DNA of 64,000 bases from a virus (Duplodnaviria; Caudoviricetes): IMG/VR virus record IMGVR_UViG_3300032330_001742, positions 32,001 to 96,000 of that record; one strand, written 5' to 3'. A model generated the notes under the pieces. That model worked only from the letters and a program-made list of their open reading frames with translations. It was not told where the DNA came from and made no database searches. A program made the position numbers and the translations under genes. Positions 22,106 to 46,360 of the stretch are shown piece after piece. Position 1 is the stretch's first letter; each line of letters starts with the position of its first letter.

Positions 22106-22641
22106 TGTCTGATTGCTGTCCAGAAATAATTAGTAAACAAGATCCATGTTGGGATGGTTATGTTCAGCGTGGCATGAAAGAACAAGGTGGAAAGATGGTT
22201 CCTAACTGTGTTCCTTCAGAAAAATCAGATGCACCTATGGATGTTGCTAATAACCCAACTATTAGTGACCCAACACCTGCAGCACCTAATGGATTAGGAA
22301 TGAAAAGACCACAATACATGTTAAATCAAGCACGTCCAACAAAGCCCCTTAAAATTCACAATAAGCCTGGTGTAGATATTTGGGCTGGATCTGCTTTTGG
22401 ATCAAAAAAGTATGACGAAATTGTAAAAGATAATCCAGTAATGCCAACTGACACATATCAGGTTCCCGAATATGATGGTTGTGGTTGTGAAACATGCATG
22501 GAACTAAATGTAAATTGTAATAATTGTCCTGTCTGTGGACCAACACAAGTAAATGATGTTTCAGAACTTGGAAAAAGTATTTTTAATTTAGAAACAGCAG
22601 CATCATTAATAACTAAACAAACAATAAGATGGGATAAGTAA
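22105..22641 (+). CDS. hypothetical Cys-motif protein
   Basis: PCWDGYVQRGMK..GKMVPNCVP and CGCETC..CNNCPVC. Confidence 0.6.
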   Translation: MSDCCPEIISKQDPCWDGYVQRGMKEQGGKMVPNCVPSEKSDAPMDVANNPTISDPTPAAPNGLGMKRPQYMLNQARPTKPLKIHNKPGVDIWAGSAFGSKKYDEIVKDNPVMPTDTYQVPEYDGCGCETCMELNVNCNNCPVCGPTQVNDVSELGKSIFNLETAASLITKQTIRWDK

Positions 22642-39166: not shown

Positions 39167-39382
39167 TTAATTATAGGGGTTTGAGTTGATTTTTACAAGG
39201 TTTGAAGGTGTGATACTAATCACAGGAGCCATCTGCTCAGGTTCTACGGCGGTACGGGTAACGAAGGTATCAATACCACATACACAGCCTGGATCCATCA
39301 CGGGAGCCTTATTAGTAATAACCTCAATAAGAGAGTCACACTCAGTACATAGATAACTATACTTAGTCCACATATTATTCAT
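39167..39382 (-). CDS. small zinc-ribbon protein
   Basis: CTECD...CVC. Confidence 0.55.
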   Translation of the reverse strand: MNNMWTKYSYLCTECDSLIEVITNKAPVMDPGCVCGIDTFVTRTAVEPEQMAPVISITPSNLVKINSNPYN

Positions 39383-39685
39383 CCCAATACTTTACAACAG
39401 TTCTAATGGTAGTATGGATATGGCAATCACAGTCTTCTGTGGCTTGATCAAAATGTTCTAAATTATCCTCATAAATGAGAGTAACTAATTCGTCTATAGT
39501 ATAAGGTTTGTATGTTTGGGTCATACATTAATTCTACCCTAAACCTGGCAAAAATACAAGTCCATCGTAATTAAATTTTGGTTTGACATTTTGGGAAATA
39601 TATGCCGACCTTCGTAATTGATTTTGATCATGACATTTTTAGCCGACCCGCATTTTTATGCATTGGCTTGCATATTTATTTATTG

Positions 39686-39759
39686 CGATTCCGACGGGAC
39701 TTGAACCCGCAACCTCTACCGTGACAGGGTAGCGATCTAACCAATTGATCTACGGAATC
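39686..39759 (-). tRNA. tRNA-Asp(GUC)
   Basis: GATTCCG/CGGAATC-G; CTACC-CTGTCAC-GGTAG; T loop TTCAAGT. Confidence 0.93.
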
Positions 39760-39762
39760 GTG

Positions 39763-39789
39763 TGAGCAGTTTTACATCATGCTCAGGAT
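39763..39789 (-). ncRNA. repeated H-type pseudoknot motif, copy 1
   Basis: ATC-CTGAGCAT-GAT-GTAAAAC-TGCTCA. Confidence 0.6.
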
Positions 39790-39795
39790 TTTGTG

Positions 39796-40818
39796 TTATG
39801 CGATTTGCATAACGTTTTGTACAACTTTAAGCAAACGATTCTTCTCTGCGTTAATTGCAGGGTCAAATCCACTTGCAGATGCTAACATGCTTTCATTGTT
39901 ACCACCACGTGCAGAGCGATACCAATCAAGGCGTTCTGTAAGTGCATTAAATGCACCCCATGCGTTACCAGCAATCATACCATTAAATTCACCTGTGTAG
40001 ATGTCGTTAATTGTATCGATTTTGTTTTCCCACTTAGTTAGCGCACCCTTTGCATCTTTTTCAGGCTTTGGGTATGCAGCGAGAATGATGTCATTGAAAG
40101 ACTTAGCATTTACTTCTTTTTCAAAAAGTGCTTTAGCCATAACATCGAATTCGTCCATGTAAGCATTAGCAAGACCAAGAGTCTCACGTGCAATTTGAAC
40201 TTTTCCATTTGCTGTCTGTGTGTGGCGAATCTTGAATGATTGCTTGATATTCTTATTCTTCTTGCGACCAACGCCACCAAGAGCAAGATTAAGAGTATTA
40301 GCGCAAACAACACGAACAGGTGTGATGCTTGCTTGAATTGCGATTGAGCCATCGTGTGATGTGTTGATGAGCAAATAAGTTTTTACCTTATCTGCAACAC
40401 CGCTAGGGTCTAGAACTGTCTCACGCTCAAGAGCAAGAGAGCCAAATACTACACGCCCACCCTTGATTGAACCAGCAGTTTCCCAACGTCCACCACCATC
40501 GAGAATGTTATCACCAAATGAAAATAAATCTTCATTCTGCAATGGGTGATAGCGTTCACCAACGATTCCCAAAATATCTGTCTGGGTGTTATCTGTAGGG
40601 TTAGTACGCAAAACGTACTGATACGCCTTGTCGCTTGTTAGATGTGATGGGGCTTCTAAATCTTCAAGACGAACATTCCAACCATTAAGATTTGCTGCTT
40701 CGAGCATTTCTGTGGTAGACTTTTCTTCTGTGAAGACTGTACCCAATCCATGCCATGCAGGCTCACGAAATGATGCAAAAGATGCTACGCCATTTTGTGT
40801 TTCGAGGTCATGTGCCAT
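39796..40818 (-). CDS. DUF932 (phage/plasmid-like) protein
   Basis: REPAWHGLG, WETAGSIKGGRVVF, SHDGS, TPVRVVCANTL. Confidence 0.9.
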   Translation of the reverse strand: MAHDLETQNGVASFASFREPAWHGLGTVFTEEKSTTEMLEAANLNGWNVRLEDLEAPSHLTSDKAYQYVLRTNPTDNTQTDILGIVGERYHPLQNEDLFSFGDNILDGGGRWETAGSIKGGRVVFGSLALERETVLDPSGVADKVKTYLLINTSHDGSIAIQASITPVRVVCANTLNLALGGVGRKKNKNIKQSFKIRHTQTANGKVQIARETLGLANAYMDEFDVMAKALFEKEVNAKSFNDIILAAYPKPEKDAKGALTKWENKIDTINDIYTGEFNGMIAGNAWGAFNALTERLDWYRSARGGNNESMLASASGFDPAINAEKNRLLKVVQNVMQIA

Positions 40819-40937
40819 GAGTTTCCTTCTTTCTGTTGTTGTTAATATAAGTATACATGCGCCCACTGACAATGTCAAATAGGCTACGTAATGATTGGGG
40901 CAATTCAGACATTTCTTAAAGGTGATCTTAAACACAG

Positions 40938-40953
40938 TGTGATATTGATCACA
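40938..40953. promoter_or_regulatory. CRP/GlxR-type palindrome (one of five perfect copies)
   Basis: TGTGA-TATTGA-TCACA; the others start at 39209, 42686, 43947 and 45296. Confidence 0.7.
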
Positions 40954-40986
40954 TGGGGCCGACTCAAAATTTTAAGGTTTTTAGAG

Positions 40987-41015
40987 GGGCCAGTTTTAAT
41001 TCATGGCCCAGGAAT
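40987..41015 (-). ncRNA. repeated pseudoknot motif, copy 2
   Basis: ATTC-CTGGGCCAT-GAAT-TAAAAC-TGGCCC. Confidence 0.6.
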
Positions 41016-41034
41016 TTGTTTAGTAGTCCCCCTA

Positions 41035-41445
41035 CTAAAAATCAATTCTGTCGACTGTAGCGCTAAGCCACGTGATGTTGTCAGAATTATAAGATACAGA
41101 TTCAAAATCGATATCGTTAACAATTGATTCTACATCTTCGTCATATGGCACCTGAACTGTAACGTTGTAAGTAACTGAGACCTCAACTTCAACTTCCTTG
41201 GTAAGTTCAAAGCCCATTATTTCTGCAATTTCATTTGCTTGGTTTTCTGTAATTGCATCACGTTCTAGTTCTGCTAGCGTCCAGTGTTGCATGCCCTCTA
41301 CCATACGGTTACGGTCCGCTGAATCAGAATATGAACGTTGGTTTAACCGCTGAATGAATTCATCCTTAGATGTAATTGACTCCTGCAGTGCAGTGATTTG
41401 TGTTTTGAGAAACTCTTCTGTTGCATTTACTATTGTTTGGTCCAT
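41035..41445 (-). CDS. hypothetical protein
   Basis: MDQTIVNATEEF..., downstream of a TTGACA/TACAAT promoter. Confidence 0.65.
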   Translation of the reverse strand: MDQTIVNATEEFLKTQITALQESITSKDEFIQRLNQRSYSDSADRNRMVEGMQHWTLAELERDAITENQANEIAEIMGFELTKEVEVEVSVTYNVTVQVPYDEDVESIVNDIDFESVSYNSDNITWLSATVDRIDF

Positions 41446-41522
41446 GGGGGGCCTGCTTTCTGTTAGTTTGTTTATATTAATTGTACTCGTGGCCACTGAC
41501 ATTTGTCAAGGACCCCTTAGGG

Positions 41523-41549
41523 TGAGCCTTTTTGGATCGTGCTCAGGAT
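41523..41549 (-). ncRNA. repeated pseudoknot motif, copy 3
   Basis: ATC-CTGAGCAC-GAT-CCAAAAAG-GCTCA. Confidence 0.55.
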
Positions 41550-41688
41550 GTCTGCTTCTTTAGGGCTGCAGTACCCTTGCTCTATAGTATTTCTATAATC
41601 GCCCTAATCAGCCTGGCGAATAATGAGAGTTCTTACTTACGACATTGGGCGAGAACACTCTCTAAACTGCCCCTGTTTCGTTATTTAG

Positions 41689-42111
41689 TTATAGGTAACG
41701 AGCAACTGCTTGATAAGTAGAAGTCGAAACTGTTTCCTCATCTGTCATCTGCAAGATACGGATTGCGTTAGAGATTTCCTCTTTTTGCTCACGATAGTTA
41801 TAGATAGAGATTGACTCAAAATCCTTTACAGGCTCTTTAGGCAATTCCTTTTCTGCAACTGTGATGTCGAAGTCAATGTTTAACTGATTGTTCCAAGAAC
41901 GATAGTTAGTGCGGAAGTTTTCTGCCTTCTTGATGTTTGCTACTGCATAATCAACAAGTTCCTTCTGCCAAGCCTTACGAGCCTTTTCATACTTAGCCTC
42001 GTTTGCTTCTTGTGATGTGTAATCAAGTTCTAACTTTGCTAGTGCGCCTTCTAGTGCCTTGATAACCTTTGGTGTTGCCACCTTTACTGAGATTGCTTTG
42101 CTTCGTGCCAT
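41689..42111 (-). CDS. hypothetical protein
   Basis: 140-aa ORF with an AAGGAAA SD. Confidence 0.7.
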   Translation of the reverse strand: MARSKAISVKVATPKVIKALEGALAKLELDYTSQEANEAKYEKARKAWQKELVDYAVANIKKAENFRTNYRSWNNQLNIDFDITVAEKELPKEPVKDFESISIYNYREQKEEISNAIRILQMTDEETVSTSTYQAVARYL

Positions 42112-42148
42112 TTGGGTCTGTTTCCTTTTCTATTAGTTGGGGGGTGAG

Positions 42149-42180
42149 TGAGTAGTTTAATTATCTCATACTCAGGAGAT
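42149..42180 (-). ncRNA. repeated pseudoknot motif, copy 4
   Basis: ATCTC-CTGAGTAT-GAGAT-AATTAAAC-TACTCA. Confidence 0.6.
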
Positions 42181-42190
42181 TTTTGTCAAT

Positions 42191-42358
42191 TTACTTTGCT
42201 GTCCAAGTTGTGTAACGAGGCTTTCCATCAACATCAAGTTTTACACGAACACTCTGTCCGTTCTTGTTTGGTGTGATTTCAAGAATTGTTCCTGTTACCT
42301 TTGACTTCTGTGTTGTGAACAAGTCGCCAACCTTGTAAGTTGCTGTATTTACTGCCAT
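42191..42358 (-). CDS. small SH3/KOW-like beta protein
   Basis: MAVNTATYKVGDLFTTQKSKVTGTILEI...; below the ORF-track cutoff. Confidence 0.65.
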   Translation of the reverse strand: MAVNTATYKVGDLFTTQKSKVTGTILEITPNKNGQSVRVKLDVDGKPRYTTWTAK

Positions 42359-42431
42359 TTGTTTATTTCCTTTTCTGTTAGGGGTTTTTGCTTACTGTAT
42401 TAGTTTAACATTTTTTGGGGAAAATGTCAAA

Positions 42432-42602
42432 TTACTTAGAGGTCTTAACCATAGCCAAACGGCGTGAGCCATTTGCCAAGACTAGGCTAACTCTGGTAAC
42501 CTTGTTACTGATTGGTGAGAAACCTGCGATACGACCTGTAACGCCTGTTTTGCTTGTTGTGAACAAGTCACCAATTTGGTATGTGTATCCTGAGATTGTC
42601 AT
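42432..42602 (-). CDS. small SH3/KOW-like beta protein, paralog of 42191
   Basis: MTISGYTYQIGDLFTTSKTGVTGRIAGF... Confidence 0.65.
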   Translation of the reverse strand: MTISGYTYQIGDLFTTSKTGVTGRIAGFSPISNKVTRVSLVLANGSRRLAMVKTSK

Positions 42603-42832
42603 AGGGGTCTTGCCTTTCTGTTTGGGTTATAGTTTAATTCTACACTAAAAATGTCAAAAATACCAATCTAAGTGGCATTTTTGGGTGTGATAAAACTCAC
42701 ATCTTAAACAGCGTGTCGTAACTTGACAAGATCAAGATTTTGCGCCGACCCCATTTTCGGGGACTTATCAAGTCATTGAATTAAAAATAAATAAAATATT
42801 AAGAGTGCAAGCATTAACCAGTACATGTTAAC

Positions 42833-43579
42833 TCATTTCTTACTCGCAGAAAATACAATGTCTGCTTTAGAGTATACACACAATGAACAAAAAACGCAAG
42901 CGCTACCTGCAGTGCTAATAAGTGGAATTGCTTTTTTATTTTCAGGACACTTAGCACCAGGCTTACCAATCATTTCTTTCATGTCTGCTTGACCTATTGC
43001 GAAATTCTTAGCAAGGTATGCAAGGCGAACACCATTTTTAATTTTAAGGTCAACACCTACTTTTACATTTTCGCTATCAGTACTAAAATAAAGAGACAGG
43101 TTAGGAATGTCTTTTAAGATAAGTGCTGCAGACTTAACACGTGTATATACCCAGAATTGAATATCAGGTTGTTCTTCAATAACCATACGCCATGCGTTGG
43201 TATAGTCATCGTTAAAGAAATCTCCGTCCCAGTGAATGCGAAATAGCATAGGGGCGTCTTTCTTTACACAATCAGTTTTAAACTCAGCAATCATTTCTGA
43301 AAGTAGAGTGTACATCGTCTGCAGATCTGAATCTTTAAGTAGGTCCCAGTTATGCAATAGGTTAGTTTTTACACCCTTGAATAGTTTTTCCAATTTGCCT
43401 GCATAGCAAACACTTTCGCAGACAGACGTAGCGCCAGGACATGAATAGTCTTTTCCTGCAGGTAATCCGAACGTATTAGCAATTGCGGCTTGCTTTCCAT
43501 TTTTTGTGACAAGGTTAGCCACCTTTCTATCATTAGAGCGTTTTAATTTAAGTGTAAGTGTATTAGTAGTCAAGGCCAA
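42833..43579 (-). CDS. mycobacteriophage gp88-like (radical-SAM-like) protein
   Basis: FGLPAG..SCPGATSVCESVCYA, FRIHWDGDF, FWVYTR. Confidence 0.75.
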   Translation of the reverse strand: MALTTNTLTLKLKRSNDRKVANLVTKNGKQAAIANTFGLPAGKDYSCPGATSVCESVCYAGKLEKLFKGVKTNLLHNWDLLKDSDLQTMYTLLSEMIAEFKTDCVKKDAPMLFRIHWDGDFFNDDYTNAWRMVIEEQPDIQFWVYTRVKSAALILKDIPNLSLYFSTDSENVKVGVDLKIKNGVRLAYLAKNFAIGQADMKEMIGKPGAKCPENKKAIPLISTAGSACVFCSLCVYSKADIVFSASKK

Positions 43580-44013
43580 GACTCATTTCTAGAGCAATGT
43601 CTTCATTATAGGTTGCGGACATTTCTTCTAGCAAGCAATGAGTGCACATTTCTTCTACTTCATCCACAGCATTTTCATGACATGAAGGACAGGTTGTTGC
43701 GTAGTATTCGTCATAGAATTCATCTGCGATATTTCCCATGGGGCTATTCTCCTTTTTGTTGATATTTATATTGTAGCATTTGTGACTGACATTTTCTACC
43801 CTTGCGAGTATATGCCTTTTTAGAGGGCACAGCGGAAGCAGCGTTAGACCTACGTAACTCCATGAGTCTACGTAATTCTTCTTCTGTTTTCTTTTGCGTC
43901 ATATAACTATCCTAACACATAGGGGAAAAAATGTCAACTTCTTAAATGTGATTAATCTCACATGCGACACGCCGTCGGAGTCGGCTTGCATTTTTATGCA
44001 GAGTGATGAATTT

Positions 44014-44235
44014 TTATTCTTCTATATCTTCATCATGCGGATAGTATAAATTAAATGTTGCGTAGTCATCAACTTCAATTAAATCTGATTCTTCATAGTT
44101 ATCTAAATACATTATTGCATAACCATCAGATAGTGGAGTAATGCCAACTACCTGCACAATTTCTCCATTGACTGAAATAAAATCATCAACTTCTAATTGA
44201 TCAACGTTGAGTGTATCTACTTTTTTGAAATCCAT
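44014..44235 (-). CDS. hypothetical acidic protein
   Basis: DQLEVDDFI. Confidence 0.55.
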   Translation of the reverse strand: MDFKKVDTLNVDQLEVDDFISVNGEIVQVVGITPLSDGYAIMYLDNYEESDLIEVDDYATFNLYYPHDEDIEE

Positions 44236-44259
44236 AGTTTTTATTCTATCACCCATTTT

Positions 44260-44550
44260 TTATTCCTCATCTTCTTCTGGGTTAATAAACCAATCAAGGT
44301 GGTGCTGTTCAATAATTGCCCACGCAGGTGCTTGCTTGCTACCCTTATAAGTAATTTGAAATTCACCAACCATTGGCATATCAATCATTCGATTAAAGTC
44401 TTCTTCATAGGCTGCATCAATAGCATCTATGCAAGGCTTCACCATTTCTGCGGGGACAGGTGGATAGTGATTACCTTTAAGGTGATAAAGTAACTGTGTT
44501 TCTAAATCAAGGACGCTATCTGCTAATCCAATTGCTGTAACTGAACCCAT
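44260..44550 (-). CDS. hypothetical protein
   Basis: HLKGNHYPPVP...IIEQHHL. Confidence 0.7.
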   Translation of the reverse strand: MGSVTAIGLADSVLDLETQLLYHLKGNHYPPVPAEMVKPCIDAIDAAYEEDFNRMIDMPMVGEFQITYKGSKQAPAWAIIEQHHLDWFINPEEDEE

Positions 44551-44551
44551 A

Positions 44552-44761
44552 TTATTTCACGCTCACATTTCCGTTGCGGTAGAAAGTCTTAGTGTACATC
44601 TTGCCAGTAGGGTCTGACAAGTTATAGGTTGCATATTCTTTAGCGTCACCAAAGTCTACACACTTATTCCATGCAGATACCATTTCAAGCATATCTGCAC
44701 TTCGTGTTGTTGATACAAGTTCTCCGTCATAGGAGATAGTTAGTGAGTAGTTATATTCCAT
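44552..44761 (-). CDS. hypothetical protein
   Basis: 69-aa ORF in the coupled leftward operon. Confidence 0.6.
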   Translation of the reverse strand: MEYNYSLTISYDGELVSTTRSADMLEMVSAWNKCVDFGDAKEYATYNLSDPTGKMYTKTFYRNGNVSVK

Positions 44762-44907
44762 TAGTTAGCCTCTTTCGTTGTAAATAGTGCACCCTCATTA
44801 AGTAAGCCTAATTCTAAATTAAACTTCTCATCTTCATTTGCTTGCGCTAAGTCTATCCAACCTGCGCCATCGTTGTCAATTCTAAATATTTCTACATATC
44901 CCATTAT

Positions 44908-45108
44908 TTATTCTCCTGTCTTTACTGCAATAGTGCGGAATGCGTATCCACCCATAGGCTTGCGTACTTCTACAAGATAACTTTCGCAATCTTGATACCA
45001 AACTGCATGAGGGTGCTTTTCTGCGGAGATAATTTCTCCTGTTAAAGTATTTGAGTAATACTGAGTTCCTACTAATAGGGACTCGATAGAGTAGACATTT
45101 GCTGACAT
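44908..45108 (-). CDS. hypothetical protein
   Basis: MSANVYSIESLL... Confidence 0.6.
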   Translation of the reverse strand: MSANVYSIESLLVGTQYYSNTLTGEIISAEKHPHAVWYQDCESYLVEVRKPMGGYAFRTIAVKTGE

Positions 45109-45355
45109 AGGGGTTACCTTCTTTTCTTTTGTTGATACTAGTATCCTATCAGATAGGGCTGACATTTCCTAAACGACACGCCGTAACGATAGAATCTTTC
45201 TTTATTTATTTTTTCTTACTATGTAAGTCTAGCCTATAATGTCAAAAATATCAACTTACTAGCGAGTATTCTTAAATAATGAGACGCTCAAACTGTGTGA
45301 GAAAAATCACATCGTACGTAAACCACGACACGCCCGAGTGCGTCGGCCCCAAAAA

Positions 45356-45382
45356 TGAGCAGTTTTAGATCATGCTCAGGAT
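45356..45382 (-). ncRNA. repeated pseudoknot motif, copy 5
   Basis: ATC-CTGAGCAT-GAT-CTAAAAC-TGCTCA. Confidence 0.6.
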
Positions 45383-45388
45383 TTTATT

Positions 45389-45541
45389 TTATTTTCGGGA
45401 ATCTAATTCGTTATAGAGTTCATTTAGTTCACGACGCAAATAAAAATTATCTACCATCGCATAACTGATAACAACAATTGAACCAATGAGTGCAATTAAC
45501 ACAGCCCATACAGTTCCTAAATCAAAATAGTATTTATCCAT
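45389..45541 (-). CDS. small membrane protein
   Basis: MDKYYFDLGTVWAVLIALIGSIVVISY. Confidence 0.55.
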   Translation of the reverse strand: MDKYYFDLGTVWAVLIALIGSIVVISYAMVDNFYLRRELNELYNELDSRK

Positions 45542-45713
45542 TTTTTTCACAAGCCTCTCTGAATTTTTCATAGTTAAAGTTTGGATTATCTGCAAAAAAC
45601 ATATCTCCAAAATCAGCGACCAAATCTTCAAAAACAACTTGGTCAATTAGATTTACATAGTCGTTAAGTAAATCAGCAACAGCGATAAAAGTTTTACGAG
45701 TATAAATTGCCAT
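45534..45713 (-). CDS. hypothetical protein
   Basis: MAIYTRKTFIAVADLL...FADNPNFNYEKFREAC; not in the ORF track. Confidence 0.6.
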   Translation of the reverse strand: MAIYTRKTFIAVADLLNDYVNLIDQVVFEDLVADFGDMFFADNPNFNYEKFREACEKNG

Positions 45714-46139: not shown

Positions 46140-46360
46140 ATAATTATATTATAGCAGGGGGGTCTGACATTTAGGGGGGTACAAAACGGACATATGGGAT
46201 AAAGGGGATTGTGATGTACGTCATGTGGATAACTTAAGCGTAACTTAAGGGTGTGATGTGCATCATGTGGATAACTTGAGTCGGCTTTTTGTGGTGTAGA
46301 TCACATACAATATACGGCGTGTCGACTTGACTTTTTGACATTTCTGTGCTATACTTCTAG
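46140..46360. promoter_or_regulatory. divergent promoter hub with CRP-like sites, DnaA boxes and a GACAC box
   Basis: Leftward AATGTCAG-N7-TGCTATAAT; rightward TTGACT...TGCTATACT; TGTGGATAA at 46224 and 46266. Confidence 0.75.

Follow-up and report, generated by a model that had tools for sequence, protein, structure and literature searches.

Five short, similar sequences on the minus strand of a 64,000-nt stretch of phage DNA (hereafter the window), most of them lying just behind a gene, raise the question of whether they are copies of one structured RNA and, if so, what such a structure does at the ends of genes. A preliminary description had proposed a compact H-type pseudoknot in which both stems covary while a CCUG and an A-rich linker stay fixed, and several hundred independent copies now strongly support that model.

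Five copies of a compact RNA pseudoknot

All five copies are present at the places described, with the coordinates originally given for them marking their 3' ends (Table 1). Reading of the minus strand bore out the listed changes ATC/GAT, (AA)TTC/GAA(TT) and (AT)CTC/GAG(AT) in stem 1 and AGCA/TGCT, AGTA/TACT and GGCCA/TGGCC in stem 2, which in copy 2 is a fully compensated variant. Four copies do lie within about 20 nt of a stop codon, copy 3 being the outlier, and copy 1 ends 3 nt before tRNA-Asp, as had been noted. The gene order DUF932-pseudoknot-tRNA-Asp was also found in ~20 IMG/VR contigs, and an ortholog of copy 3 is present in a relative (L069:1399-1434). Copies 5, 3 and 2 are located at transcription-unit ends, upstream of the promoters from which the following genes are served, and a promoter-like site overlaps copy 4; the primary transcripts of those genes would therefore lack a knot on their 5' side.

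Covariance model R2, built from 89 IMG/VR copies with the window sequences left out, recovered all five copies (Table 1), and its next-best match had an E-value of 0.17. A CCTGRG scan of the whole 116,064-bp contig revealed no sixth full copy, and a generalised pseudoknot descriptor identified no further variant above shuffle level in the phage genome.

Table 1. Pseudoknot copies and the adjoining tRNA gene, with sequence elements, R2 scores and neighbouring features. The gap is the distance from the upstream ORF to stem 1.
Feature	Position	Strand	Stem 1	Loop 1	Stem 2	Loop 2	Loop 3	R2 bits	R2 E-value	Upstream ORF (stop codon)	Gap (nt)	Other features
Copy 5	45356..45382	-	AUC/GAU	C	UGAGCA/UGCUCA	U	CUAAAAC	46.6	5.6e-11	45389-45646 (TAA)	6	UUUUU directly 3'
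Copy 4	42149..42180	-	AUCUC/GAGAU		UGAGUA/UACUCA		AAUUAAAC	31.3	1.4e-6	42191-42358 (TAA)	10	overlaps strong promoter-like site TTGACA-18-GATAAT (42189-42160)
Copy 3	41523..41549	-	AUC/GAU		UGAGC/GCUCA	C	CCAAAAAG	30.3	2.7e-6	41689-42111 (nearest of at least 40 aa)	139	-35 box of next promoter (41509-41480) 13 nt downstream
Copy 2	40987..41016	-	AAUUC/GAAUU	CU	GGGCCA/UGGCCC		AAAAC	25.8	4.9e-5	41035-41445 (TAG)	18	
Copy 1	39763..39789	-	AUC/GAU		UGAGCA/UGCUCA		GUAAAAC	46.6	5.9e-11	39796-40845, DUF932 gene (TAA)	6	tRNA-Asp directly downstream, 3-nt gap
tRNA-Asp(GUC)	39685..39759	-										

The element is a 27-32-nt H-type pseudoknot on the sense strand with the consensus NNN-U-C / C(U) / GAGCA / U / G-A-N'N'N' / (U)AAAC / UGCUC(A), comprising a stem 1 of 4-5 bp, a loop 1 of 1-2 nt that crosses a stem 2 of 5-6 bp, and an A-rich loop 3 that probably lies in the stem-1 minor groove. 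The stem-1 pair beside the fixed U-A, a position unconstrained by the search pattern, is GC in 36 copies, AU in 29, UA in 16 and CG in 15, and is unpaired in only one of 97. In three further scans, in which one stem-2 base was forced to differ while its partner was left free, the partner compensated in 95/95, 40/42 and 90/100 copies, and double changes were observed in four of the six stem-2 pairs. Overall, pairing holds in 92.3% of cells, compared with 79% for shuffles and no more than 48% for slid controls.

The closing C-G pair of stem 1 is invariant (97/97 and 87/87 copies), and the pair next to it is U-A in pattern-selected copies and A-U, C-G or G-C in copies found with the model. Loop 1 consists of an invariant C (C9); the U after it is, in most copies, paired with the 3' A. 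The AAA of the linker is likewise invariant across the alignment; the base after it is C in most copies and A in AAAAAG variants, and the next is U in ~86% (83/97). The 18 U.G wobbles on the sense strand would be A-C mismatches if the element acted on the other strand; together with the location of 110 of 136 viral copies behind a same-strand ORF, they point to an RNA rather than a DNA element. The five elements are thus almost certainly copies of a real pseudoknot RNA family.

Distribution and placement relative to genes

A search of phage metagenomes, which the preliminary description had proposed, recovered the element in well over 400 IMG/VR contigs, and it was also identified in more than 120 bacterial or metagenome-assembled (MAG) contigs. 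Cultured carriers are phages of Roseobacter, Mycobacterium, Synechococcus, Nostoc and Bacteroides, among them Mycobacterium phage Labelle, roseophage SIO1, cyanophage S-RIM4 and crAss-like phages. The carriers are hundreds of unrelated phages and mobile elements, encompassing phages of at least five phyla and many MAG contigs, so that the original view of the copies as a feature of the early island of this phage, where they do occur, was too narrow for a pan-phage and mobile-element family. Comparison of gene neighbours across carriers revealed none in common, nor any common pathway, and this broad host range without a shared neighbour argues for a partner present in all bacteria.

Rfam 15 models returned only tRNAs across the whole window at gathering thresholds, and at E-values up to 10 nothing overlapped the five copies, the preQ1, SAM-II/V, guanidine-III and ribozyme models included. 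The earlier remark that the knot could not be assigned to a known family consequently stands with respect to Rfam, but not with respect to the literature, where the coremin motif, in particular its Watson-Crick type, is a close analogue (PMC6546385, PMC10321173, PMC10520033).

The distance from stop codon to knot has its mode at 5-6 nt and falls within 4-11 nt in 114 of 189 copies, none of which starts 0-2 nt past the stop codon. A spacing of 4-11 nt is that at which frameshift pseudoknots contact the ribosome. A -1 programmed frameshift signal, which calls for a slippery heptamer 5-9 nt upstream and an overlapping -1 frame, was nonetheless rejected, as those 114 copies have a stop codon at this distance and no slippery site; for the five window copies, no X XXY YYZ heptamer was found at that distance. 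Spacing ahead of the next start codon is spread widely, over 15-40 nt or more. Downstream of the knot, a hairpin of at least 4 bp starting within 4 nt was found in 30% of 248 copies, against 39-40% of control windows, and the mean MFE of the following 30 nt was weaker than in controls for the same copies.

Possible functions of the pseudoknot

Of the functions originally listed for the knot (nuclease block, processing or termination signal, small ribozyme, protein-binding tag), its placement and its likeness to published knots speak for a roadblock. The weakest cases are those for a ribozyme, for a classical terminator and for a block specific to RNase J. RNase J was missing from four of five pseudoknot-bearing genomes searched for it, including that of a complete Bacteroides isolate. 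Tentatively, and partly by analogy with published knots, we would put first a cis-acting, compact mechanical roadblock at cistron boundaries, inferring the barrier and its direction from the observed structure, ubiquity, strand and placement. The knot would sit just outside the footprint of a ribosome terminating the upstream gene, where it may stop or slow 5'-to-3' machines travelling on early polycistronic RNA, candidates being ribosomes that pass the stop codon, 5'-end-dependent nucleases like RNase J, and scanning RNase E. The next segment, whether a cistron or tRNA-Asp, would thereby be insulated from upstream events. Right after an efficient UAA stop, however, there is no obvious ribosome to block, the position of copies 5, 3 and 2 ahead of promoters, and of copy 4 on one, also counts against the roadblock, and the tight tie to the upstream stop codon suits a 3'-end role equally well.

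Such a role, although we consider it somewhat unlikely, is the main competitor of the roadblock. In it, the knot would mark where the upstream message ends and protect that 3' end, bringing 3'-to-5' exonucleases (PNPase, RNase II/R) to a halt once termination, or endonucleolytic or RNase P cleavage just downstream, has taken place. This role accords with the near-universality of 3' exonucleases, with an anchoring to the upstream stop codon rather than to the downstream start, and with window copies 5, 3 and 2, which close transcription units with the next promoter region just after them. A tRNA 5' end lies 4-14 nt downstream of 26 of 192 viral copies, 20 of these being tRNA-Asp, and RNase P would create a 3' end there; at the tRNA-Asp of the window, its cut would leave an upstream RNA ending in the pseudoknot plus 3 nt. 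Canonical terminators are rarer past the knot (2/196) than at other ORF ends (4.2%), as if replaced by it, and a T-rich run follows 19% of 248 copies against 6% of controls; in the minority with such a U-run, the knot may itself aid termination. Yet 80% have no U-run, and about a quarter of copies lie inside operons, 15-40 nt ahead of the next start codon. In MAG mini-ORF loci a normal terminator comes after the knot, where a protective cap would be redundant. Ordinary GC-rich hairpins suffice for this purpose elsewhere, leaving the conserved loop and stem-2 sequence unexplained, and the published analogues resist machines moving 5' to 3'. The knot itself was rejected as an intrinsic (Rho-independent) terminator, in which a U-tract comes directly behind a GC-rich hairpin: a U-run follows copy 5 alone of the five in the window, a terminator scan called none of them, and the T-rich tail is confined to the 19% mentioned above.

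A more far-reaching version of the roadblock, which we regard as rather unlikely, would make the phage knot a prokaryotic counterpart of viral exoribonuclease-resistant RNAs (xrRNAs). By analogy, it would be a minimal xrRNA fold, independent of hairpin 2, that halts bacterial 5'-end-dependent decay (by the RNase J exonuclease or scanning RNase E) as well as ribosomes, a fold that DNA phages and eukaryotic RNA viruses would have in common, possibly by evolution. The absence of a second hairpin past the knot means that exonuclease resistance cannot be transferred to it by analogy with coremin.

It is improbable that the knot serves as a specific binding site, whether for a small molecule, as an aptamer built like preQ1-I, or for a conserved protein of host or phage, as an operator (candidates would be ribosomal protein S1, an RNA chaperone, or a factor in defence or anti-defence). 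The sequence of stem 2 and the loops is kept far beyond structural need, with C9 and AAA invariant and G11-C, A12-U and G13-C retained at 77-84% even in a variant-enriched set, and this is what a binding site would explain. Against it, no neighbour gene or pathway is shared, no Rfam riboswitch matched even at an E-value of 10, and the knot stands behind genes, not ahead of regulated ones; in the alignment, loop 2 is a single nucleotide and the loop bases are all taken up by stem 2, leaving no obvious ligand pocket. More doubtful still is a tRNA-like processing signal, in which an 11-12-bp coaxial stack of stems 1 and 2, near in length to the 12-bp acceptor/T stack, would mimic that arm, so that cleavage by RNase P or some other tRNA enzyme would punctuate the polycistronic RNA. 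Viral pseudoknotted tRNA-like structures are indeed cleaved by RNase P, and tRNA genes adjoin some copies; but 86% of viral copies have no nearby tRNA, the tRNA-Asp cases come mostly from one related phage lineage with DUF932 upstream, and the bases past stem 2 are variable, with no conserved 3' CCA-like tail. Finally, we give hardly any credence to a small ribozyme that cleaves itself, or to a site that acts at the DNA level, be it a promoter, an operator, or a place of recombination or nicking. In favour are the shortness, conservation and intergenic location of the element, the likeness of its loop 3/stem 2 junction (TAAACT) to a -10 box, and the promoter-like site that copy 4 overlaps. Against them, it was found that no ribozyme model matched, that the closest relatives are non-catalytic, that the TTGACA-to-TAAACT spacing in copy 4 is 24 nt, and that compensatory changes and sense-strand G.U pairs are unexpected of a site for a protein on duplex DNA.

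Should the roadblock prove true, few cis-acting RNA elements in phages and mobile elements would be as common as this 27-nt knot, so far missed by Rfam, and phages would be seen to divide up their polycistronic RNA by means of a dedicated structural bulkhead. An Xrn1-resistance motif of plant and fungal viruses would thereby be linked to the bacterial world. How the early messages of phages escape host decay, a question of long standing, could then be tested directly in cultured carriers, and synthetic operons would gain a very small part for stabilising or insulating them. Were the knot a counterpart of xrRNAs, early operons and tRNA precursors would persist in defined, stable segments in the face of host defences that target RNA, and the 27 nt would constitute a portable RNA-stabilising part. 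Whatever the function, a covariance model for the family would better annotate thousands of phage intergenic regions.

Relation to coremin and other pseudoknots

Two classes of minimal pseudoknot share the architecture of the phage element. The -1 frameshifting pseudoknots of luteoviruses and enamoviruses, typified by that of BWYV (28 nt), combine a 5-bp stem 1, a loop 1 of 1-2 nt in which a C is conserved, one nucleotide at the junction and a loop 3 rich in A, and thus agree with the phage knot in size and layout; the phage knot, however, has a stop codon upstream instead of a conserved slippery heptamer, and no overlapping -1 frame. The preQ1-I riboswitch aptamer (RF00522) is a minimal H-type pseudoknot of ~34 nt whose A-rich 3' tail occupies the minor groove of stem 1. 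Its covariance model gave no match even at an E-value of 10, and unlike preQ1-I the phage element has no pocket, its loop being wholly used by stem 2, does not lie upstream of queuosine genes and does not sequester a ribosome-binding site.

Nearest to the phage knot among published elements is the Xrn1-resistant coremin motif, above all its Watson-Crick variant. Coremin, or xrRNA-C, occurs in BNYVV, cucumoviruses and others (Dilweg 2019, PMC6546385; 2023, PMC10520033), and the variant, xrRNA-WCC, in SPlV5 (Sanxia picorna-like virus 5) and selected variants (Dilweg et al. 2023, PMC10321173). The two can be written GUC[CGAA]GAC-GUUAAACUAC and GUC[GGAG]GAC-GUUAAA-CUC; such motifs bring Xrn1 to a halt, in BNYVV-type coremin at the nucleotide preceding hairpin 1, are barriers to scanning ribosomes and promote -1 frameshifting, as also seen in an E. 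coli screen, and Xrn1 is not stalled by BWYV-type knots (PMC6546385, PMC10321173, PMC10520033). The Watson-Crick type frameshifts even without hairpin 2 (PMC10321173).

The phage element departs from coremin proper at several points. Hairpin 2, at least 4 bp right after the spacer, is strictly required for Xrn1 resistance in coremin and was not found above control level after the phage knot, whose hosts (DNA phages, mobile elements and bacteria) have no Xrn1. The 10-nt spacer GUUAAACUAC, in which A16-A20 are essential, is matched in part by the phage element, which keeps an invariant AAA but has no 10-nt stretch ending in UAC and replaces A20 by the G that starts stem 2; the first 2-3 spacer bases vary among phage copies, as coremin tolerates. 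The consensus for the coremin loop, which is YGAD at a length of 4 nt and YGNNAD at 6 nt, differs from the 8-nt phage loop CUGAGCAU, which begins with a pyrimidine and ends in A and U but has U instead of G in second position; in the BNYVV context, a loop of 8 nt was on one occasion tolerated (PMC6546385, PMC10520033). Coremin itself also lacks a canonical Watson-Crick stem 2, unlike the phage element.

That antiparallel stem 2 is required in xrRNA-WCC and is present, with compensation, in the phage element, which has the same GAG/CUC core as SPlV5 and also has the GUUAAAC linker in common with xrRNA-WCC. In both, the 5' hairpin loop pairs with sequence past an A-rich linker (GUUAAA in xrRNA-WCC), and adenines are proposed to occupy the stem-1 minor groove; xrRNA-WCC also acts as a ribosome roadblock, stimulating -1 frameshifting, with no need of a downstream hairpin. 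The phage knot differs from it in a longer stem 2 (5-6 bp, GAGCA/UGCUC with or without the U-A pair, vs 3 bp), a hairpin loop of 8 rather than 4 nt, and a loop 1 of C or CU where xrRNA-WCC requires a single G (G5A and G5C abolish function); in having a pyrimidine after the stem it resembles BNYVV-type coremin.

Common to both coremin types and the phage element are C-G and U-A as closing pairs, an AAAC linker and a stem-2 core of GAG/CUC (compare phage sequence L028). The phage element also shares the coremin 5' hairpin of 3-5 bp with its paired second position, and the essential closing C-G (G-C abolishes function), first-loop-position pyrimidine and AAAC run. Coremin and the phage element alike are usually located on a stop codon or a short way behind one, within a 3' UTR or between genes, and the common phage variant GUCC...GACGUUAAACUGC agrees with coremin GUCCGAAGACGUUAAACUAC, 20 nt in length, in 16 of the 17 positions that lie outside the hairpin loop.

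Five copies of an H-type RNA pseudoknot in the early region

The five minus-strand elements of the early region are 27–32-nt H-type RNA pseudoknots that follow a common plan, NNN-UC / C / UGAGCA / U / GA-N'N'N' / (N)UAAAAC / UGCUCA. The preliminary description, which had placed four of them within about 20 nt of a stop codon and had one ending 3 nt before a tRNA-Asp, proved right in every checkable detail, with stop-codon gaps of 6, 6, 10 and 18 nt and with copy 1 as the tRNA-adjacent copy. Copies 5, 3 and 2 are situated at transcription-unit ends, shortly before the regulatory region and TTGACA promoter of the following unit, while copy 4 overlaps a promoter-like site. The best matches to the DUF932 product upstream of copy 1 are proteins of Streptomyces phages (~52% identity), and megablast of cultured phages with a 7-kb query of the region returned no match.

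A covariance model built from the window copies together with IMG/VR copies (R1) scored the five elements at 34.6–47.8 bits and the next window match at 13.4 bits. Because of the circularity in R1, a second model (R2) was built from 89 IMG/VR copies only; it recovered the five copies with E-values of 5.6e-11, 5.9e-11, 1.4e-6, 2.7e-6 and 4.9e-5, the next match having an E-value of 0.17. Scanning the whole 116,064-bp phage contig, whose bases 32001-96000 make up the window, for CCTGRG revealed no additional full copy, and a generalised pseudoknot descriptor found no other variant exceeding shuffle level in this genome.

Pseudoknot copies and repeated motifs of the early region
Feature	Coordinates	Strand	Context
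Pseudoknot copy 1	39789-39763	minus	6 nt after stop codon of DUF932 ORF 39796-40845
Pseudoknot copy 2	41016-40987	minus	18 nt after stop codon of ORF 41035-41445
Pseudoknot copy 3	41549-41523	minus	139 nt after ORF 41689-42111
Pseudoknot copy 4	42180-42149	minus	10 nt after stop codon of ORF 42191-42358
Pseudoknot copy 5	45382-45356	minus	6 nt after stop codon of ORF 45389-45646
TGTGA-N6-TCACA palindromes	39209-39224, 40938-40953, 42686-42701, 43947-43962, 45296-45311
Octamer GCGTGTCG	42711-42718(+), 43965-43972(-), 45174-45181(-), 45326-45333(-), 46317-46324(+)

The same region carries other repeated features. Perfect TGTGA-N6-TCACA palindromes, which match the CRP/GlxR-type consensus, occur five times in the window against 0.13 expected by chance, and at a minimum the four between 40938 and 45311 are found some tens of nucleotides upstream of a TTGACA promoter of minus-strand early units. 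The octamer GCGTGTCG, also with five occurrences against 0.13 expected, is found in the palindrome-bearing early spacers, partly inside small GC-rich hairpins. Copy 4 is set within the region's best promoter-like site (42160-42189, minus strand; TTGACA-18-GATAAT with an upstream TG), and transcripts begun there would be without stem 1. No knot is present in the paralogous spacer that lies one gene farther upstream (42402-42430, TTGACA-17-TAAACT). The genes concerned (42191-42358 and 42432-42602, minus strand) are adjacent ~55-aa paralogues with a common GDLFTT motif and their own promoter-like spacers, and only the second is trailed by a knot. Between the 140-aa ORF and copy 3 lie 139 nt (41550-41688, minus strand) with no ORF of 40 aa or more, the 3' part of which is kept in a related contig (L069); this segment may be a small RNA or the remains of a gene that has decayed.

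Covariation and spread of the family

The H-type pseudoknot is real. The first search pattern placed no constraint on bases outside UC...GA and held stem 2 fixed, and in the 97 copies that it retrieved the stem 1 pair adjacent to the fixed U-A was GC in 36, AU in 29, UA in 16 and CG in 15, with one mismatch; the next pair outward was formed in 79 of 97, by six pair types. Because this pattern fixed stem 2, three scans were performed that each required a change at one 5' base of stem 2 and allowed any base (N) as its partner. When A12 became G, the partner was C in 92 and U in 3 of 95 copies; pairing was kept in 40/42 copies with G13 changed to A or U and in 90/100 with G11 changed to A, U or C. 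The compensatory changes previously noted in both stems hold in the free positions of stem 1 and in the partner-free scans of stem 2. In an independent alignment (A4), 92.3% of cells were paired, versus 79% in shuffles and 19–48% with slid partners, and double changes were present at 7 of 11 pairs. Copies found by the model show covariation of the inner U-A of stem 1 as well (AAAC/GUUU, CCAC/GUGG, CGCC/GGCG), the closing C-G of stem 1 being invariant in these too. The presence of 18 U.G pairs on the sense strand, together with the co-orientation of 110 of 136 viral copies with their flanking ORFs, indicates that the structure belongs to the transcript and not to duplex DNA, and a DNA-level site finds little support.

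Neither Rfam 15 nor the searchable literature contains the family. Searches of Rfam 15 in gathering and E-value modes (E up to 10) returned tRNAs only, in agreement with the earlier failure to assign the element to a known family; literature searches by motif strings retrieved only unrelated primers, and a look through recent ncRNA-discovery papers gave no description of it. A degenerate pattern matched at least 119 IMG/VR contigs and, in bacterial or MAG collections, at least 120 more, including many from Saccharibacteria, Geobacteraceae, Actinomycetes, Bacteroidota and Firmicutes; those from MAGs may represent misbinned phage DNA. Three variant patterns added at least 120, at least 54 and at least 117 further IMG/VR contigs. 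Among cultured phages, short BLAST searches identified the element in roseophage SIO1 (after the class II ribonucleotide reductase gene), Mycobacterium phage Labelle (after gp85), cyanophage S-RIM4, crAss-like phages cr7_1 and cr124_1, Paracoccus phage ParMal1 and Nostoc phage NMeng1, in unannotated spacers save for one short match within a hypothetical protein. Flanking genes are varied and often typical of mobile elements. A Pfam scan of flanking ORFs (69 bacterial, 110 viral) revealed no constant neighbour protein family, those encountered (DUF932, 19; Hsp20, 4; class II ribonucleotide reductase, 2) reflecting lineages. Copies are dispersed except in a Sneathiella MAG (L186:4174-4257), where two knots sit in a 48-nt direct tandem repeat.

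A subfamily in MAG contigs (L133, L149, L154, L157, L162, L174-L176, L182, L187, L192, L194, L208, L210, L211, L213, L220, L225, L238) is associated with ORFs of exactly 20 codons with strong Shine-Dalgarno sites, encoding peptides MKRFTIPRVAHCSEGC...S and MRWMFPHATHCSACGS...S, for which an NCBIfam search gave no match. Their stop codon is either a UGA within stem 2 of the knot or a UAG just 5' of stem 1, and some of these loci lie beside merA- or arsR-like genes. The peptide terminus ...CSEGCPIRS-stop is a redox-tail-like C-terminus similar to that of the SIO1 class II ribonucleotide reductase, which terminates in ...CATGACPIR-stop and has the knot after it (L240:1440-1530; NC_002519 ~22140-22230). 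An in-frame UGA recoding site was rejected as a general reading, being confined to this subfamily, with phage copies having their stop codon upstream. An AUG-NNN-UAA mini-ORF within the knot, seen in four window copies, was likewise discarded; it is not conserved in the family, the U of AUG changing to C or A.

A candidate roadblock at cistron boundaries

With ORFs taken as crude stop-to-stop frames, the position of the knot is closely tied to the preceding stop codon. For the 189 copies preceded by an ORF of 60 aa or more, gaps of 0–2 nt between stop codon and knot do not occur and a gap of 3 nt occurs once; 5–6 nt is the commonest spacing, 114 of the 189 fall at 4–11 nt, and when the distance is taken to the invariant closing C, its smallest value, 8 nt, is the most frequent one as well. 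Distances to the next start codon are broad (15–40 nt in about a quarter, the rest much farther or with none). Of 192 viral copies, 26 lie 4–14 nt before a tRNA, 20 of these being tRNA-Asp, and most come from phages related to this one that have DUF932 upstream.

Compact knots of the coremin type, an Xrn1-resistant motif of RNA viruses, are a known obstacle to machines threading RNA 5' to 3'. The knot stands at the very spot at which a terminating ribosome would only just reach it, and could act as a cis-acting roadblock at cistron boundaries, insulating the downstream segment (the next cistron or a tRNA) from upstream ribosomes and from 5'-end-dependent decay. We favour this reading because the element resembles a known type of obstacle, sits in a ribosome-touching position, is found across hosts from many phyla and lacks a dedicated partner gene. 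RNase J was rejected as a general explanation, since searches for it (TIGR00649, PF17770) in five knot-bearing genomes found it missing from four, one of them a Bacteroides isolate; all five encode RNase E/G. This tells directly against a roadblock that works through RNase J alone.

The main rival to the cis-acting roadblock is a 3'-end cap, by which the knot would stall 3' exonucleases or stand in for a terminator. The tie to the stop codon, the location at unit ends and the adjoining RNase P sites speak for such a cap, as does the scarcity of ordinary terminators, canonical ones following the knot in 2 of 196 copies versus 4.2% at other ORF ends (T-rich runs follow in 19% of copies versus 6% of controls). 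Against it stand the copies inside operons and the terminator found after the knot in many of the MAG 20-codon loci. Ligand or protein binding, tRNA-like processing and a ribozyme each have little support.

Comparison with coremin pseudoknots

The coremin of BNYVV, GUC[CGAA]GAC-GUUAAACUAC, is followed by an obligatory second hairpin, and its essentials are the closing C-G, a pyrimidine first in the loop and the spacer A16-A20 (PMC6546385). Variants with 6–8-nt loops are known, often near or on stop codons, and coremin blocks scanning ribosomes (PMC10520033). The Watson-Crick type found in Sanxia picorna-like virus 5, GUC[GGAG]GAC-GUUAAA-CUC, folds as a genuine H-type pseudoknot whose stem 2 is GAG/CUC; the motif promotes -1 frameshifting, also in an E. 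coli screen, and without hairpin 2 the Watson-Crick type still frameshifts, whereas Xrn1 resistance needs hairpin 2 (PMC10321173). The searchable literature yielded no paper linking coremin to phages.

A common phage variant, GUCC-UGAGCAU-GAC-GUUAAAC-UGCUCA (e.g. L028), agrees with 16 of 17 positions of the 20-nt coremin outside the loop, and has the GAG/CUC stem 2 core of the Watson-Crick type, extended by CA/UG. A C9+.G-C triple and A-minor contacts are predicted for the knot. In contrast, the loop consensus YGAD/YGNNAD is not matched, loop 1 is C (C9) where the Watson-Crick type requires G, and no coremin-like hairpin 2 was found after the knot, a hairpin following in 30% of copies versus 39–40% in controls. 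On account of these three differences we keep the element outside the coremin family, and suggest that it resembles a Watson-Crick coremin knot and probably acts as one does, without being a member of that family.
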